A stretch of 64,000 nt of DNA from Lama glama (Eukaryota): assembly GCA_028534125.1 (NCBI GenBank), contig CM052823.1:21576001-21640000 (forward strand). Direction: 5' to 3'. The stretch's first letter is position 1, and every line of letters starts with the position of its first letter. The notes under the pieces are model-generated. The model was given only the letters and a program-made list of their open reading frames with translations, was not told where the DNA came from and did no database searches. Positions 24,573 through 43,100 of the stretch are shown in pieces. The position numbers were made by a program, and so were the translations under genes.

Positions 24573-27500
24573 CCAGGATGATAAGTTTTTGTCACTGAAG
24601 GCTTACCAGCTGAGTCTGAAACACCACATGAGAGACCATGGGTTGATGATTGGTTGAGATATCAGATGGTGGGCTTGAGTTTAAAAGCCCCACCAGGTAT
24701 TCCATTTCCCCAGCTCTCCTTGGGCAGAGTGTTCAGGCAAGGGACATTCTGCCTGCTCCCCAGGAAGGATTTAATTCACTGTCCTGGAGCCTGGGAGCTC
24801 CTTGTTTAAAGGGCTGTTCTTCAGTCAGCATCATCCCACATCCTGCATCCCCATCCAAGAGCAGCTAGCCTGGGGTGGGGGGTGGGCTGGGCAGGTGGCT
24901 AACCTCATCCCTAAACCCCTGGACACAAATGTGGGTCCATTGACTCCCCCACCCAAGGCTGGGCTCCCTCCCCTACTGCCCCTTATCAAGCCTCTCTCCT
25001 GGGTGGTGAGCTGTCACCCGCCCCAGTGCTGCCCCCACAGCCTGCCATCACCAGATCCGACTGACTTACAGGGGCTCCTCTTCCCCAGGGTCGGTATTTG
25101 CATAGGGTGATGGATGCTGAGATGTCATCTAAACACATCTGCACTTTGCATTTTAAACAAAGCAATTTCCAGAGCAAGCTGGGGCAGCTTTGTCTCCTTC
25201 CAGGAACATTTCCTCTGAGTGAAATTCTTTCTCTCTTTTATTTTTTGGCCAGTACTTTTCACACCTGTCCCAGGTTTCGCTCCTCTACTGGCCTCCTGCT
25301 CACTCCCCACCCCTGCCCCACCGCCACGGTAGAGACTCCAGTGTGGAGCAAAGGGTTACATGCGCCGCAGGATGGAGAAGGACGTAGGACCTGGCCAGGG
25401 CCAGGCAAGGGTCGCCTAGCTCCCCTCTCACCTGGCCACTCTGCCAGTGAGGGCAGAGCAGGGGCTTCTGAGCCTGGGCCAGTCTGAATCTACAGCTAGT
25501 GTCTCACCCCGACAGCCAGCCCAGGGAGGACCGAAAGCTTGCCCCACTGTCTCCAGGTGGGAGAGACAGGTCTGACCATGTCCTTCCCCTGCTTAAAACT
25601 CGGCCAGAGTTTCCAATTTGTTCTGGATTGAGAGCAATGCCCTCAACAAGCCCTGTGCAATCTGGTCCCTGATTTCCAGCCTTCTCTTCTCTTCTGCCCC
25701 TTTGCCACCAACCAACCAACCAAATGGTCTTTTTCCAGTTTCTTGAGCAAGCCCGAGCACATTAGCCTCGCTCTGTGTGTCTCTCCCTCTCTCTGTCCTG
25801 GAAGAGAGCTCTCTCTTCCAGAAACTCTCTCCCCTACCTTACCTGGCTTCCTCCTCTCCTACATGTCTCAGCCTCCACCTGCTTCTGCAGGATGGTTACC
25901 TGCACAATACCCCCCATCCCCCACCCCATCCCTGCCAAAGGCTAGGTTGCTTTCCCTGCTACATCCTCCCATATGTTGTTGAAAGTTTCCTGGATAAGAT
26001 GCCCTTGTAAATTGCTAGTTCAATGCCTATCTTCTCTGCTCAACCGGGAGCCCTCAATACACCCCCAAACTTAGCTCCGTACCAGGTGATGAATGAATGT
26101 GTAAAGAAGCAGGCCAAAGGGACCAGAATCAGTCAGGAGAAAGGAGGGCTAACAGAAGAGACAGCACATCCTGAATTGGAGAAGATTTCTAGGTGTTCCC
26201 CTAAAACAACTGCCAGCCTTTGAGCCTGGAGGTGTCCCCCTGGAAGAGCACATCTGGGTCCAGTGTGCACGGCAAAGCCTCAGGGCAGGTAAGGGGCAGC
26301 TCTCTAGGATTCCAGGTGGCATCTGTTCTGTGGGGGCGAAGTGACTTTGCATCAGAGGCAAAATGAAATACATGAGGTGGCGAGGTCTTCAGTCTTCCTC
26401 CACTGTCCTCACCACACGCCCTCTGCTCAAGAAGACGTTTGCTTACTGGAGCAGCTTCTGGCTTCTCTTCAGCTTGTGCTGTAACGTGGAAAGAAGCTGA
26501 AGAGGCTGAGCTGATTAGGTAACAAGGAGCTGAATCGGGGAGGGGAGGGCTGAAGCTGGGGCACCTAGAAGGCTGAGTTAGGGGGAGCTGGGGCAGCATG
26601 GAGATACATGGGAGAGATTTCCAGGAGCAGGGAACCATCCTGCAGAAGCAGGTGGAAGCTGAGACATGTAGGAGAGGATGCCTGGGAGAGAGAGAGGAAG
26701 AAAGAGGTTTCTGATGAGGTTTTGCTGTGCATTGATAATTTACTATCCCACTGGTGGTGTTAAGGGTATGCTAAGGGTCAAGACTAGAGTCACTTTTAGT
26801 TATTTTGTGGTTGCTGGACTGTTGTTTATTTGGGAGGGATTGGCTGGGCATTGAACATGGCTTTGGGTTTCATCAGGAACATGTATTTAATGAGAGGCCT
26901 TGAGAATGGGGTCAAGTGCAGTTCATGTGGCCCATGAGTTGCTCTAGAGTCTTGTCTCCTTTATGATGGCCTCTGTCCTAGCCTTGCTCCAGGCTTGACT
27001 GTAGAGGCTTGTCATGTGTGTCTGTGGGACGAGGGGACAGGAAGCTTTGGTGGTCCCTCTTCTCACAGGGAATGTGGGGAGAGGCTCTTCAGTATTCGAG
27101 TGAGAGCCCCAGTGTCCTGGCTTTGGCTTGTGACAGCTGCCAATGGGATCTTTGCACAGATGAGTTGGGCATTTGGGCTGACAAGGAGGGGCATGTCTGC
27201 AGAAGTGAGACCAACTTCCTAGAAAAAGTAAGTTGGAAAAAATGTCTCCAAAGACTCCTAACCTTTCTTCCTGTAGAGACGAAGGCTTGGCTTCTGAGCA
27301 TCACACACGGGGCTTTGAATGGCTAAGCCCCAGGTTCCCCTGCCCATCCCAGGCTAGGGAAAGAAGTGATAAGAGAAAACCCACAGGCGGAACTGAACAG
27401 GCAGGGACAGTCATGGGGAGGGCCATTTGGGGCCAAGAGGAGGAGGGAGAGGAGGAGCCATCTTCATCCGTAGCACTCTTAAACAGGGAACACATGGTCT

Positions 27501-34241: not shown

Positions 34242-34601
<360 letters not shown>

Positions 34602-34764
34602 TCACTATACAGAGAAGGAAACCCAGGCTCAGGGAGGATACACTGCCAGTCTGAAGTCACAGAGGCCAATGACAGAGCTGGGCTTCACATTCAAGGAGAG
34701 ACCTCTATCCATGGAGGACTTGAGAAACCGTCAAGAGGTGGCAGTGGAGACCCTGAGTGGAATT

Positions 34765-34935
34765 GCAACCTTGCATCCCTTACTTGCTAGCTGTGTGACT
34801 TTAGGAAAGCTATTTAATTTCTCCGTGCCTCATTTATAAAATGAAAGAATGCCTACCTCAAGAGGTTAAATGAGTTAATACAGATCAAGAGCTTGAAACA
34901 GCTTAAACTTGTCACAGATTAAGTGCCCACCTAGT
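34765..34935 (+). mobile_element. MIR SINE
   Basis: Core ctagctgtgtgactttaggaaagctatttaatttctccgtgcctcatttataaaatg...ttaaatgagttaatac. Confidence 0.75.
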
Positions 34936-34940
34936 GATAT

Positions 34941-35300
34941 CACTACCATTGTCATGACCACCACCACCACCAACACCACCACATTACCACCACCACCATC
35001 AGCCATCATCATTACCACCACAATCACCACCATCATCACCTTCATCATCATCACCATCACCACTATCACCATCACCTTCATCATTGTCACCACCACCATC
35101 ACCTTCATCATCACCCCCACCATCATCATTGCCATTAACCATCATCATTACCACAGCCACCACCATCATCACCACATCACCATCATCACCATCAACCACC
35201 ACCATTGTCACCACAACCACCACCATCATCATCTTCATCATCATCATAATCACTCTCACCATCAGCAGCAGCAGTACCATCAGCACCGCCATCATCACAG
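34941..35300. repeat. Imperfect (CAC/CAT)n trinucleotide tract, about 360 bp
   Basis: Seen directly (accaccatcatcaccatcacc...). It produces the spurious His-, Thr- and Met/Val-rich ORFs. Confidence 0.95.
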
Positions 35301-36943
35301 CTATTACTGCTGCTGGTGCCACTAGGCATTAGCTCAAGTCTTCAGTGAATTCACTAACCTTACACAGATAAAGGGGCTGAGCTCTGTGTCTGGGTGCCTT
35401 GAGGTGGTGGACACAGAGGAACTCAGATAGCATGGCTGGACATCAAGGAACAGTGGTGGAAGACACTTAGGAGTTCTATAAAATTCTGGGGAAAGCTTTG
35501 GACTCAGATCATGAATTTCAAATGAAATTTACCTAAATCCCAACAGTGCAGGGAGGCTCCTGCTGACAGCTGGGTTTTACAGTTGGGTCTGAGCCGAAGC
35601 AAAGCGGAATGTACTTCCTGGCCTCGAGGGAAATAACCAGCCTTCCTCTGATGTTCCTTAAAGATACTGAGCCACTCCCTGTACTGCAGCATCCAATACC
35701 TCTTAAAGGTGGGAGGGGAAGGGTGCACGTGAATGAAGTGAACTGGAAGCTCTGGGTGGGTCACAGAGGAAGGCTGAGCAGAGTTTCCTGAATTCCTCAA
35801 AAGAGCAGGGCAATTCCTTTGCAAGCTGGGTTGGTTTAGATACCAGACTGCCAAGGGCAGCAGCACCAAGTGGCTGACCCCACTGACTTCCTCTGAACTT
35901 CTGGATCCACACTCAGCCCATGACTCCAAGGGTCCTATCTCTTTCTCTTGAGAGAATAGCAATAGAATGAGGTGGATGAGGCTCTGGAGTCTTAGATGCT
36001 GTGTGACTTTGGCCAAGTGACTTAAGCTCTCTGAAACGGTTTCCTTAGCTATGAAACAGAGCAAATAAGAGTGCACACCTCATTGGGTGATGGTGAGGAT
36101 TAAATGAAATGGTTATCAGGCACTTAGTAGGCATCTAATAAATGCTACTTTTATTGCCAGGAGGGCTCAGACTGAGGGCAAATGCCTTGCAGGGCTGGCC
36201 CCATACCCAAGACTCCTCCACATTTTTCTGCCCCTTGTTACCAAGGTGATGAAGACTCCTCCTTTGCTGGTGGGGATGAAGCACAGCTCCATTCCTACAC
36301 TCTTGGCTATTTCCAGAGCGTGCCCCTGAGATGCACCTGGCCGTCCAGACTCCCTGCCTCCCCCCAGCTTCCTCTCCCCATTCCCCGACCCTCCCCAAGG
36401 AGGCCAAAATTGGCAGCTGCCTTCAACCAAAAATGAAATAAAATAACATTGCAAGATTAATTTCTTTGCAATCCATCAGCGAGTCTGTATTGATGGCATT
36501 GATAAACTGTTAATTACAAAATCAATGGCTATGAATTTTTTCTGCTGTCAAGGAGCCTTGGAGAGGCTGGGAGGTGGGGTGAGAGACGGACAGCAGGCTC
36601 CCGAGGGGCTGTGGTTTGGGGCCACAGCCTCTGACGTGCTCCCATCCACTCCACCTCAGCAGTGGCACCCACGGTGGCCCTTGGGGCTGCCACCAAGACC
36701 ACTCCAGTCATCTCCTGGGCCCTGTCTCTCCTCTAGCTAACACGCTGTCTGCCTGGGTGGATTTCCTACCCTGCTGCTGGGGACAGGTCTCTCCCCCACA
36801 ACCTTTCATGGCTCCCTCTACTGACTCCATGAGACCCTAATCTCGTCACAATCCTGGAGCCTGGTCTGACCCCAACAACCTAACCTCCAAACAGGCCTGT
36901 TCTTTCTCCATTTCCTGCCTGAATCTGATTGCTCCACCATGCA

Positions 36944-37024
36944 GCCGAGGCCTTACACATTACCAACTCCTCCTTCTCCACTTGGAGCTCTTGTACCCGC
37001 AGAGCTGCAGGACAGCCTGGTAAA
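36944..37024 (-). pseudogene. Degenerate intronic duplicate of part of the ESRRB LBD exon (pseudo-exon)
   Basis: Aligns by hand to 39835-39919 at 66/85 columns, including an exact 17-mer (aactcctccttctccac). Translation IYQAVLQLCGYK / frameshift / LQVEKEELVMCKASA versus the functional [29 protein letters not shown]. Confidence 0.85.
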
Positions 37025-37569
37025 TGCCACCGGGGCAAGAAGTCCAGGTTCTGAGGATCTGTCTTGCACGACAAAGTGTGTACTCAGGCAGAGCTTGACG
37101 CTCGCTGCCGCTCCTGTTGGGCTCTGTTGGTCCTCAGGCGCTTTGTATGTGTCCGTGTGCCTGTGTGCGCGTGCACACATACGTGTGCCTGCCTCTGTGT
37201 GTTGTGATCAGGGCAAGAACAGCTGGCCGAGCTAAAGAGTCCTCTGAGAGCCCCTGCAGCTTGGCGCCTACGGGTGGGTGGAGGCGACAGAGTGGCCTCC
37301 CACCTCTTCACTCTCCTCTCCTGGCACGGGCAAGTGTGAGCTCTAGGTCTCGTGAGAAGTGGTCAGGAGAGTCCAAAATCAAGGATGTGTCCTCCAGGGC
37401 CTGGCCAGTCTTGCTGCGCCTCGCTGTGCTCACCCCCTGTCCTCCGCTTCCACTGGTTCCCTCTCCTCCTCTGCACATCCAAATTCCCAGCCCCTCTGCA
37501 AGCACTGCGGAGGGGTTACCCTGCTTCCCTCTGAATAGGAGAGCGCGGGGAGGGTGTGAAACACATCCT

Positions 37570-37840
37570 CATAGCGTGTAATGATGGAGATCTGTCATTG
37601 TGTTTGTCACAACCCACAGAACGGTACAAACACAGAGTAAACTGAGGGCAACCGTGGGCTTTTGTTAATAATAATGTATCAACATTGGCTCATGAATTGC
37701 AACAAATTACCATACCAATGCAAGATGTTAATAATAGGGGAAATTGTGGTCAGGGGCTGGGGACACGGGTAGGATGGTATGTGGAACTCTATGCCCTATC
37801 TGTCAATTATTTTGTCCATCTGAATCTCTACTGAAAAAAA
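37570..37840 (+). mobile_element. L1MC-type 3' end fragment
   Basis: aataatgtatcaacattggctcat...caagatgttaataataggggaaa...atgtggaactctatg followed by an A-tail. Confidence 0.75.
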
Positions 37841-39746
37841 ACCCCAAAAGCCCAACAGTGTTAGCATTCTCCAACAAAGAATACAGTACAATTTTAGAAT
37901 CCAACGGTATGTGTGAATGGTCTCTATAGAAGCATGTAAAAATTTTAATTCTTATTTTGCATTAGTTTTTTAATAAAAGAGATTTGAACTAAAAAAAAAA
38001 AAAAACAGCTTCCCTCTGTGTATTAGGTCAGGTTCTCTGGAGACAGACCCCTAGACAGGGCTTTGGGTGCATGGGACTTGTGGAGATTCAGGAGACAGGA
38101 AGGTGGAGAGGCAGGGTAGGGCAAGGGTGGGAGCAACCAAAGTAAGGAGGTAGCCTCGGCTTGGGCTGGATCCCATGCCAGGGGTCCAACCCTTTGTTCC
38201 CCTGTGTGGGTCCCCCATCGGCTGGAGGTGCCAAGGTGGGGCGGGTACTAATCCTCCAGGCAAGGCAGGTGAAGGTAGGTCTCTTGTGAAGGGGGCGGGG
38301 GGCAGCTGTGAGCTATTAGCAGCAAGATTCCGCAGCTGGGGCACAGGAGTACTAACCCAGTAAAGGGGGTCTGACTTGGGCATCAGCATCCGCAGGGCAT
38401 CAGCAGCATCCCCTGCATTCTCTACAAGGCCATTTGTTAGGGGACCAACTGTCCCAGTTTTCCAGGGCCTGAGGTTTCCTGGCACATGGAACCTCCAGTA
38501 AAAGTGTGACAGCAGCAAGCAAACCGGCTGGTTACCCTGTTTGTCCTGTCTCCACCAGGAATCAGCTCTTCCTCTTCCATATGCTGGTAACACTTGTTTC
38601 CTCTAATATTCATAATATTGATCACATTTATTGAACACTTCCTCTAGGCCAGGCACCAGGCTAAGTGCTTTATATTCAGTTGATCATTTCAAACAAAAGT
38701 GCTTGGAAGAGGAACAGGGATATCCCCACTTTACACACAGGACAGAGCTAAGGAAGATTGCCAACTGGCCCAAGGTCACACTGCTACTAAGTGCCAGAGC
38801 TAGAATTTTAACTTGGGTCCAAGCTGAACTTGACTCAGACTTGAACGATTAATGACTGCATGCCGCCTGGCAGTGGAATTATGTGTATGCATGCTTGACA
38901 CCCTCCCTTGCACAGGGACCCTGCCTTTCTCCTTCTTCTGCAAGCTTGACCCCTGCCCCAGCTCCTGGCCTGTACCTGCAGAGGGTGGACACCCTCTAAA
39001 TGTGGATACAGGTTACATTCAGGCTCATTCACCTGCGTTACCAACACCAGCCCCTCTCTCCAAATAGTCTAGCCAGAAGTTGGTTGGGGCTAAAGAAATG
39101 GAGTGAGGCCCCCTTTTTAATGCCAGGAAAGGTTTCTCTCTTGGGCCTGAGCAATTTGAGTGGGAGATTCAAGGAGTGGGTATAGGCTTGCAGTTGATTC
39201 TGGAATTAGAGGACCTTGGTTCGAGTCCTAGGGCTGACCCTCTTTAACTGTGTGACCCTGGGAAATTTGTAAGCCTCGGTTTCCACATCTGTAAAGTGGG
39301 GTTAAAATAATAACTTTGCTCATAGGGTTGACTGTAAGATGAAATCAGTTCGTGGCTAATTGATTTAACTTGGTTGAGTACTTATCATGTGCCAGGCATA
39401 TTGTAAGCATAGTGATATATAGATGAATCCCTTCATAGTTTTGTTGGGTAGAGATGGTTTATGGTCCCCATTTTACTGATGAAGAGACTGAGGCAGAGTG
39501 AAGTGAGGCACAGATTTGTCCAAGTGGTAGAAGCAGGATTTGACTCTCAGCAACCTGGCTCTCGAATCTGTGCTGTTAACCCTTGTGTTCATCTGGTCAG
39601 TAAGGCTTGAGGAATACTCAGCCAGTGCCAGGCTTCACCACCATCTTTTCGATTCTGCACCCCACCCCATCCCTTGCACAATCTTCAATGACAAAAAGAA
39701 CCTCAGTGTCTTCACACCATCCCTGCCTCTACAGCAGCCCTGCTCA

Positions 39747-40184
<438 letters not shown>

Positions 40185-43100
40185 TCATTGTACTTCCCGT
40201 GGTGAGTGAGTCAGACACGGAATTCGTAGAAGAGACTTACGTAACAGAACTCGGTCAATGCTGACTGTTGCTACTATCAGTACTACCGTTAGTCCCATTG
40301 TATTTTTCAAATGTCTGGAGAAGCTCTTTGATTCATTAAACGCATGTGTAGTTTTAGGAGTTACTGAATTCATAGCAGAATCAGGAGGTGGCAGTACAGG
40401 GTCCTGTCCACTCTGAGGAGTTTCCAGGTCTCCCTCTCTGCTCGAACCAGGGGCGGCTTTGGTGTTTTAAAGTGACATCTGATCCTCAGTGCAGAGTCTC
40501 AGCTGTGTCGAGACCCGGGCGCTCAACCAGGAAGGAGTCAGATGCTCCCGGCCAGTGACCTCCAGTGACCACAGTCCGGGACTGCTAAGAGCTCAAGGGC
40601 CCCCAGGTCAGAGGCCACCTGTCCTCCCAAGGGTCAGACCCTGCTGGCCCGGCCATCACTCTCCACCTAATGATGACCCAAGCAGTCCTATATTCTGCAA
40701 GCTTGGATCATGGGCGTTCCCCTTCCCTACTAGCAAGGAGGCTGTGTCCAGAGTGAAAGGAGGTTGGCGGTGGGGACGGCTCCAGAATTATGACACTGTC
40801 TTGTTTACTGGAGATTGCCTGGTATGGAATCCCGGCTCCTCATTTACTACTTATAGGCTGACCTTGTTAAGAGCTGTACTCCTTCCCCAAACCTCAGCTT
40901 CCTCATCTATGAAATGGGTATAATAGTAGTGACTGCTTCAGAGAGAGCAGTGACGTATAAATGAGACAGTGACTATAAAACATGCAGGACATTTACTGAG
41001 CTCTTATTATTATTAATGATGAGATGACAGTCTTCTGCAAAATGAGAATAATATACTGGAACTGTATTATATAGGCACTCAGGTAAACTCATTAAAATAT
41101 TGATTTAAGAGAAAAGGGAAAAAAAGAAAGGAAGGGAGCAGGTAGGGAAGCAGGGAGGGAGGAAGGCAAGCAGGGAGGAAGAAAGTTGATTTTCAAATAT
41201 CTTGGTCACTAAACACAAGGCAGTATGTTCAACCAGAAACTCCATGATGGTTTCAACACTGACCAGGCCAGATGAACCAAAAAGGAAAGTTATCCACCAA
41301 GCCGTTTGCACCATGCGCCCATCACAGACAGCTGAAATTAAGGAATCTCCGGGGTAATTTCACTGATGTAGGACTATTTACTTCACTTGCTGACCTAGAA
41401 CCTAACCCGGCTTGGATGTGGTGTTCTGATGCGGCTGTGGTAAGATGGCACGTGGGAAGCACTTAGCATCTCCCTCTACACACGCTCAGCAAACCTGAAC
41501 TAGGAAGGTGGTGATGGCTGGAGTCATTACTATTACTGCCATTGTTGTTGTTAGCATGCTATTGACATGACTTTCTTCTCCGCCACCAACTGAAGGTCTG
41601 GGGTGGTCCCAAGCCTCTGGTCTGGCCCAAGGCTCTGGGTTTCCGTGGGGTCTATCCCACCCTCATCTGCTGTCCTCTGTCTAAAAGCCACTGTCCCTCC
41701 CCATTTCCAACCAATGCAACCAGTGTTCAACTTTACGGCGTGTCCAGGGGATGCACCCTTTGTGCGGCAGGTCCTCTTTCCCAGCAAACACATTTTTGAT
41801 CTGACCACCTCGATTAGCAGGCCGATCTGTACAACCCGCACCTGGGATCACCGCCTGGCTGCTGGCATCCCCGCATCTGATCGCCCACAGAGCTGGCGCA
41901 ATGATACTGACGACATGGGGCAAGCCTGGATTGATGCACCTTCTCGGGGAAGAGGCCAAGGCACAGAGGGGTCAGGTGCACATGTGTTGTTGTCCAGATC
42001 AGTGTGGGAGAGGGTGTGTGGCTGCCTGTGGCAGTGGGGAGAGCCGGGAGGTAATGAAAGATAGATAGAAATGGACATCCAATTTCCCTTATCGGGCCTC
42101 TGAGCGGGAGAGGCCTTGGGCGACATTAATTAACAGATACCAATCAGCCAGCACAGGAGGGTGTGTGTGCGGAGGGACGTGTGGGGCTGCACTGGGGGCG
42201 GGGGTCTGAAGGCAGACAGACTGGGAGGGAAGGTGTAGGAGGTGAACGGGGCAAAATTAATAGACAATTGAATTGGAAGGTGGCAGGGGGGAGGGGTGTA
42301 GGAGTGAGGTTTCTGGAAACGAAGGAGAAAAGCCTCGTGGGAAGCTAATTACTAGAAGAGTGTGAACAGCACGCTCCGGGCCCCTTCATTCATTCCAGAT
42401 ACTTACTGAGGATCTACTAAGTGCCAGGCCCTGTGCTGGGCATTGGGGACAGAATGACTGGCTCAAACCAGAACCGGTCGCTGCCTTCGAGAGCTCAGTC
42501 AGGAGGGAAAGACACACCCCAGGTGACCACACGGCCCCACGAGGTTACAGCTGTCAGAAGAGCTACGGGGAGATGGAGGGCTCTGAGAATTCACAATGGC
42601 GGAAGAGAAAGTCAGTTCGGGGGACTTTGCAGAAAAGGAGACTTTGGGGCTGAGCTCTGAAGGGTGAGGTGGGGCCCTGACCAAGCACTGGGCCTGGTGC
42701 AAAGAAGGTGCCCCATGAACATTCTGGGCACAGAGGACAAAATGGACAGATGCCACTGGGCCAACTCCTCGGTGATGAGACAATGTGCCAAAAGAACTCG
42801 GTTAGACCCTCTTAGTCATTTAGACCGGAGTCCAGATTTAGCTGCCTTTGCTTATTGTGTCTGAGTCAGAGACAGGCCTGCAGGGCGGGTGGCGGGCGGA
42901 GGGAGGCTCGCCTTGGAGATGTGGGGCCACCATTGAGGATGCAGCTGAGACCTGTGTGCACACCCCTCTGCTAGGCTGATCTGAGGAGACTTGGCCCCTG
43001 ACTCCTTTCTAAGAATTTCTCCTAGCAACCACACAAAGATAAATGTGAAAAGGGCGTTTGTTAGATCCACTTGTAATGACCCAAAACAGGAGACAACCTA

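Follow-up and report, generated by a model that had tools for sequence, protein, structure and literature searches.

The closest described counterparts of the locus presented here are the repair-mediated duplications (RDs) of Pace et al. (2009, PMC2671141), short and non-tandem copies whose donor lies less than 5 kb away and which carry no poly(A) tail. That survey counts 824 human cases within 5 kb, with a median length of 147 bp, a maximum of 619 bp and four partial and two full exons among them, as well as 202 cases in cow; all 39 proximal duplications inspected lack a poly(A/T) tail and are attributed by the authors to DNA repair. It further includes 20 two-donor chimeras, two-piece acceptors joined at microhomology and, as a precedent within a gene, exon 7 of ACSBG2 copied into an intron of that same gene, and it cites the related "doublets" of Thomas et al. 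The class 2 TSIPs of Onozawa and Aplan (PMC5110952) are similar patches of 70-400 nt, found at presumed breaks and without target-site duplication. Two other systems also bear comparison: in human cells, spliced mRNA is able to template double-strand break repair, with the broken gene's own transcript acting in cis and a whole-intron deletion left as the scar (PMC12065846), and tandem exon duplication-derived substitutions and mutually exclusive exons (PMC8373072, PMC5740500) feature a same-orientation exon homolog in the adjacent intron that keeps its splice sites, frame and length.

We analyzed a 64,000-nt stretch of DNA (the window) whose minus strand carries the 3' part of ESRRB, with four coding exons (Table 1). 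Among 605 hits for the product of the donor exon, 89 residues long, the first is an ERR2 entry of Camelus dromedarius with 100% identity, which makes a camelid the likely source animal; the best PDB match of this product is the ERR2 ligand-binding domain (E 5e-51). The intron that follows holds a decayed copy of part of this exon, which we interpret, with somewhat more confidence than doubt, as a patch of at most about 117 nt copied from inside the neighboring exon during break repair, on a template 2.9 kb away, and decaying neutrally ever since.

Table 1. Features of the ESRRB locus, in window positions
Feature	Position	Strand	Remarks
Coding exon	~48432-48318	-	ESRRB
Coding exon	~47826-47660	-	ESRRB
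Donor exon, penultimate coding exon	39821..40090	-	Intact, 270 nt, ligand-binding domain; AG/GT boundaries
Last coding intron of ESRRB	34487..39820	-	5334 nt; hosts the copy
Last coding exon	34242..34486	-	Short-form ESRRB; ends LEAKV-stop
Copy, core	36944..37024	-	Versus exon 39919-39835, codons L320-A348, 66/85
Copy, probable 5' piece	37025..37060	-	Versus exon 40033-40000, codons ~E282-L292, 25/36
Uncertain tail	36900..36943	-	Possible echo of the exon's last 14 nt, then donor site or last-exon start; not significant
Conserved non-coding element, single-copy	36436..36550	-	91% over 115 nt versus bird locus L001

The copy is a genuine homolog of the neighboring ESRRB exon. Over the 85 columns of a global alignment, its core and the minus strand of the exon share 66 identical positions and differ by 15 substitutions and 4 gap positions, in agreement with a preliminary description in which these figures had been counted by hand; the spacing given there as about 2.9 kb measures 2891-2895 nt, the translation with its frameshift is reproduced, and the residue numbering holds in the 433-residue form of the protein. 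When the exon is compared with the window by BLASTN at word size 7, the core is recovered in the same orientation (62/78 identities, E 5e-11) and the next-best match in the window falls at E 0.09, while nhmmer with a three-species exon profile finds the core at E 3e-11. By both BLASTN and profile search the match is unique within the 64 kb, and the three other ESRRB exons leave no echo there in the profile search. The Smith-Waterman score of exon against intron is 65, compared with 23 +/- 2.5 for shuffled sequence (300 dinucleotide shuffles, maximum 33; 300 codon shuffles, maximum 34). The region is purine-rich, and the stretch directly after the copy (~36890-36640), purine-rich as well, resembles, and may be, an old LINE-2 remnant, features that might have favored a spurious match; against this, the score of 65 stands far above the shuffle maximum of 34. 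Divergence of about 20%, with indels (three small deletions of 1, 2 and 1 nt in the core, giving a net frameshift), bears out the view of an old and decayed copy and also argues that this is not an assembly duplicate. In addition, 14 of the 24 listed sequencing runs, from six studies, contain 90-94% of the sampled words of 36300-40300, a figure to be read knowing that one run may be the source and that the copy makes up only 3% of that interval. Chance, an assembly artifact or a fragment of ESRRG or ESRRA is hardly a credible origin for the match. CpG-type changes are present as initially noted, although they account for only 2 of the 15 substitutions rather than for several.

As to the source of the copy, it aligns with a score of 86 to the ESRRB exon of the window, against 66 for bird ESRRB, 69 for a fish ESRRB-like exon and 47 for a fish ESRRG-like one, and it retains Y and KV-type positions at which ERR-gamma differs. 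Comparison with this paralog therefore supports derivation from ESRRB, as initially proposed; ESRRA is the most distant paralog, judged on the donor exon rather than on the copy. At the nine core sites where the window and bird exons differ, the copy agrees with the window exon at six, with the bird exon at none, and carries another base at the remaining three, which supports a mammalian ESRRB as the source. The sequences for this comparison came from a search of metagenome contigs with the exon protein, which yielded four loci among 161 pattern matches: bird ESRRB with its whole intron, two fish-like ERR contigs and one weak match, all classified by sequence. The same search came to 0 of 98 in prokaryote contigs and 0 of 16 in viral ones, and no mammalian locus came up among all contigs searched. 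In the fish ESRRG-like contig (L003, 500-859), the exon is itself split by a 90-nt, in-frame, intron-like insert after D-K codons.

The age of the copy can be approached in several ways. Among 120 ERR-beta proteins, those of placentals read LYRAIL at a site where LYLAIL stands in the four marsupial sequences, as well as in those of birds and reptiles; the codon of the copy at this site lies one CpG transition from the placental state and one transversion from the bird state, which favors, and does not prove, an origin on the placental stem or later. In the bird locus, where the whole intron is covered, no echo of the exon is seen (scores of 21-26 against shuffle means of 22, and no profile hit), and the bird intron fails to align at the site of the copy, which shows no conservation to bird, unlike the element at 36436..36550. 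Differences at 9 of the 55 sites in codon positions 1 and 2 translate into 0.18 substitutions per site (0.08-0.36) on the branch of the copy, and at a neutral rate of about 2e-9 per site per year this gives some 90 (40-180) million years. On these grounds we would place the copy roughly in the early history of placentals, and predict that it is common to other placental mammals.

The preliminary description had tentatively added a second short match as the exon's 5' part, joined to the core across a deletion. This holds once the match is anchored to the core, with its extent corrected to 37060-37025 against 40033-40000 (25/36). As a free local match it is weak, with 6-9 of 600 control windows of 61 nt and 29-57 of 271 larger windows of 251 nt scoring as well; when anchored, its score is equaled by 1-8 of 500 composition-matched control windows across nine settings, and a pair-HMM averaged over 150 gap sizes prefers it by about 18:1, with a best gap of 80 nt. 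Further extension beyond 37060 is at chance level. The copy would therefore span about 117 nt and probably consists of two directly adjoining parts, in which 37060-37025 derives from 40033-40000 and 37024-36944 from 39919-39835, with about 78-80 bases of the middle of the exon absent between them. A four-nucleotide word, CTAC, flanks a 78-nt gap on both sides and fits either a later microhomology deletion or two-ended copying; we regard it as a weak, after-the-fact lead, since the word occurs twice in the 5' part of the exon and a gap of 80 nt fits best.

The reading put forward at the outset was an old, decayed tandem exon duplication. In a fuller form of this reading, the exon would have been duplicated in its entirety, splice sites included, perhaps spliced for a time as an alternative exon, and later eroded by deletions at both ends and in the middle; in its favor, the pieces keep the order and orientation of the exon and together reach across 199 of its 270 bases. 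We consider it rather improbable. Detectable homology begins 57 nt inside the 5' end of the exon and ends 14 nt before its donor, and neither splice site falls within it. It is possible to align the tail with the donor and on into the intron, but only with scores at chance level. Copied flanking intron was not detected, control windows matching the real flank in 181 of 289 cases upstream and 131 of 289 downstream, where simulated power for a 100-nt copied flank is 0.97-0.98 at a divergence of 0.18 per copy and 0.34-0.35 at 0.30. Similarly, 28 tiles of the upstream intron form no chain at an offset of about 2.9 kb, their best matches lying at scattered offsets and several of them in dispersed repeats, and the single-copy, bird-conserved element, which lies some 400 nt beyond the copy, sets a limit to any duplicated unit in that direction. 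Given the lack of copied flank and tile chain and the presence of this element, head-to-tail duplication of the exon together with its introns appears unlikely. The flanks could have been copied and lost later, as the internal gap indicates that deletions happen. The flanks of the copy have no relative in the window better than E 0.02 that would mark them as an old repeat, and Rfam over 34400-40200 returns a single chance match (E 0.95).

The notion of a former mutually exclusive exon fares no better. Substitutions show no bias among codon positions 1, 2 and 3 (5/26, 4/29 and 6/26; Fisher p 0.54, on 15 substitutions only) and so, within these small numbers, give no sign of a coding past. The copy lacks an acceptor and donor of its own at homologous positions, the donors nearby being weak; it carries a net frameshift and misses about 80 nt; and a second copy of the motif, or an alternative protein form containing it, is found in none of the 120 ERR-beta proteins examined, the best 120 of 605 hits. 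Translated in its two frames, the copy has no protein relative (two matches among 1.84 billion sequences, both repetitive and unrelated) and only chance matches in the PDB. With ends inside the exon, no copied flanks, no codon bias and no second copy in these proteins, the mutually exclusive reading is unsupported, and where the exons of PMC8373072 and PMC5740500 keep splice sites, frame and length, the ESRRB copy keeps none of them. ESRRB was likewise not found in these two human catalogs, as far as the passages and one supplement file of PMC8373072 and ten supplement files of PMC5740500 go, the long ones among which may be incomplete.

The detectable restriction of the copy to exonic sequence also invites a different template, namely spliced ESRRB mRNA that would have undergone reverse transcription and entered an intron of its own gene, in cis, while a break was repaired; such a copy would pass from the end of this exon straight into the last one. 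Beyond the core, some 40 nt do allow an alignment with the end of the exon and, past it, with the last exon, and the scores depend on the model. If the ancestor is represented by the bird last exon, the score of this spliced tail is equaled or exceeded by 6-41 of 1000 shuffles in 8 of 12 settings; with windows as controls, the count is 0-6 of 400 in all three settings. Intron models of the tail, with either intron, are never reached by fewer than 56 of 1000 shuffles; a pair-HMM with a mixed camel/bird profile prefers the spliced over the intron tail by about 1.1- to 4-fold. With the window's own last exon, however, the tail is not significant (67-180 of 1000 in nine settings and nothing in the three strict ones), strict scoring extends the tail under no model, 23 of 150 control windows reach the mixed-profile pair-HMM score, and 48 tail tests were run, after the match had been seen. 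The marks of processed insertions, a target-site duplication and a poly(A) tail, were not found at the copy: the ranges searched hold no flanking direct repeats of at least 7 nt, and a poly(A) tail, which age may have erased, is absent beside both ends. Tailless proximal duplications have, moreover, been attributed to DNA repair (PMC2671141), and the scar described for RNA-templated repair removes a whole intron (PMC12065846), whereas here an ectopic exon piece, with a putative junction, lies within one. We therefore hold an mRNA template, for which human cells offer a precedent (PMC12065846, PMC5110952), to be unlikely; equally unlikely, on the same evidence, is its most far-reaching form, in which the copy would be a roughly 90-million-year-old germline scar of RNA-templated cis repair with an exon-exon junction left inside the gene's own spliced-out last intron.

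A repair patch copied from the DNA of the neighboring exon is the reading we favor. In such a scenario, a germline double-strand break in the last intron of ESRRB would have left an end that invaded the nearby exon, copied 100-200 nt and rejoined, as in synthesis-dependent strand annealing. The missing 78-80 nt would have been deleted later or else never copied, in which case each of the two ends may have used a different part of the exon as template before they annealed at the shared CTAC; the inserted copy would then have decayed neutrally. The ends internal to the exon, the lack of copied flanks and of poly(A), the size and the distance fit a proximal repair-mediated duplication as described for human and cow: the distance between donor and acceptor exceeds 50 bp and stays below 5 kb, the insert (81 nt for the core, 117 nt with the 5' piece) falls between 50 and about 620 bp, and no poly(A/T) tail adjoins either end. 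Within the 64-kb window, a single donor is seen. At the breakpoints, the four-nucleotide word surrounds a 78-nt gap, yet the best gap is 80 nt, and the bird intron gives no alignment at this point. The copy departs from the listed RDs in being about 20% diverged, most of those listed being of primate age and found inside annotated transposons (PMC2671141); it departs from class 2 TSIPs, whose donors are distant and whose insertions are polymorphic (PMC5110952), in having its donor 2.9 kb away and in being ancient.

Whatever its origin, the copy might now serve as a poison exon or splicing decoy tuning ESRRB output. Weak AG and GT pairs surround it, many of which would shift the frame or add a stop, and the purine-rich exon sequence it retains might act as a splicing enhancer; its candidate donors, however, reach 3.5-6.3, the best near its end 4.2-6.3, on a generic matrix that gives the real donors 11.4 and 12.5, none of the 120 proteins uses the copy, and the described human ERR-beta variants diverge only downstream of the host intron (PMC4978380), which leaves such a role very improbable. 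Nine of the 120 proteins feature non-standard sequence after the exon, and none of these segments long enough for a search maps to the copy, which probably has no function today. Five runs guessed to be RNA and one recorded as RNA contain 0.07-0.27 of the sampled words, figures with no bearing on expression of the copy.

Several other features of the locus were observed alongside. One dromedary protein (P0001) carries a 104-residue insert, probably a gene-prediction error, that begins with the AG/GT-bounded segment 37267-37183 (minus strand), about 120 nt upstream of the copy, and continues as low-complexity sequence resembling the triplet tract at ~35290-34880 (minus strand), leaving the copy unused. 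The conserved element at 36550-36436, alignable to ~36380, matches L001 13417-13531 above the level of the flanking exons (85-87%); it has no Rfam match and is likely regulatory. Two further intronic elements are conserved to bird, at 42148-42072 (85% over 79 nt) and 46377-46269 (73% over 112 nt, including a core of 23 identical nt). Downstream, 32672-32575 (minus strand) is homologous to the C-terminal extension of the chimpanzee long ERR-beta form (two pieces at 77-79% amino acid identity, bearing a frameshift as well as a stop). The 3' exons of this long form have been called primate-specific (PMC4978380), so the homolog indicates that their raw sequence is evidently older than primates. 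Gene models of the sperm-whale family (P0007, P0040, P0041) end in an alternative exon instead of the normal last one, and the segment 27218-26896 (minus strand) is its homolog; in the window, this segment follows a strong AG acceptor rich in pyrimidines, yet contains stops and frameshifts. Finally, 25852-25903 and 26627-26678 form an inverted pair of 52 nt with 96% identity, about 720 nt apart.

Overall, the copy is a further instance of a known and common kind of duplication. The earlier statement that no description of it is known stands for the locus, as our literature search, with subscription papers outside its scope, found none of the copy or of a duplicated ESRRB exon, and four supplement files of PMC2671141 do not list the gene; it does not stand for the class, which that survey describes. 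A mammalian genome carries hundreds of short local duplications (PMC2671141), and if the repair-patch reading is true this one is of little import in itself, standing out chiefly through the constraint on the exon that served as its donor. ESRRB is the deafness gene of DFNB35 (PMC4978380), and any real cryptic splicing here would be clinically relevant, though nothing points to such splicing. If the tail were a true splice junction, the locus would represent an inherited case of a gene's mRNA written back into its own intron. Beyond this, the presence or absence of the copy could help to mark early branchings among placentals, and the copy itself could hold a frozen sample of the ancestral exon.
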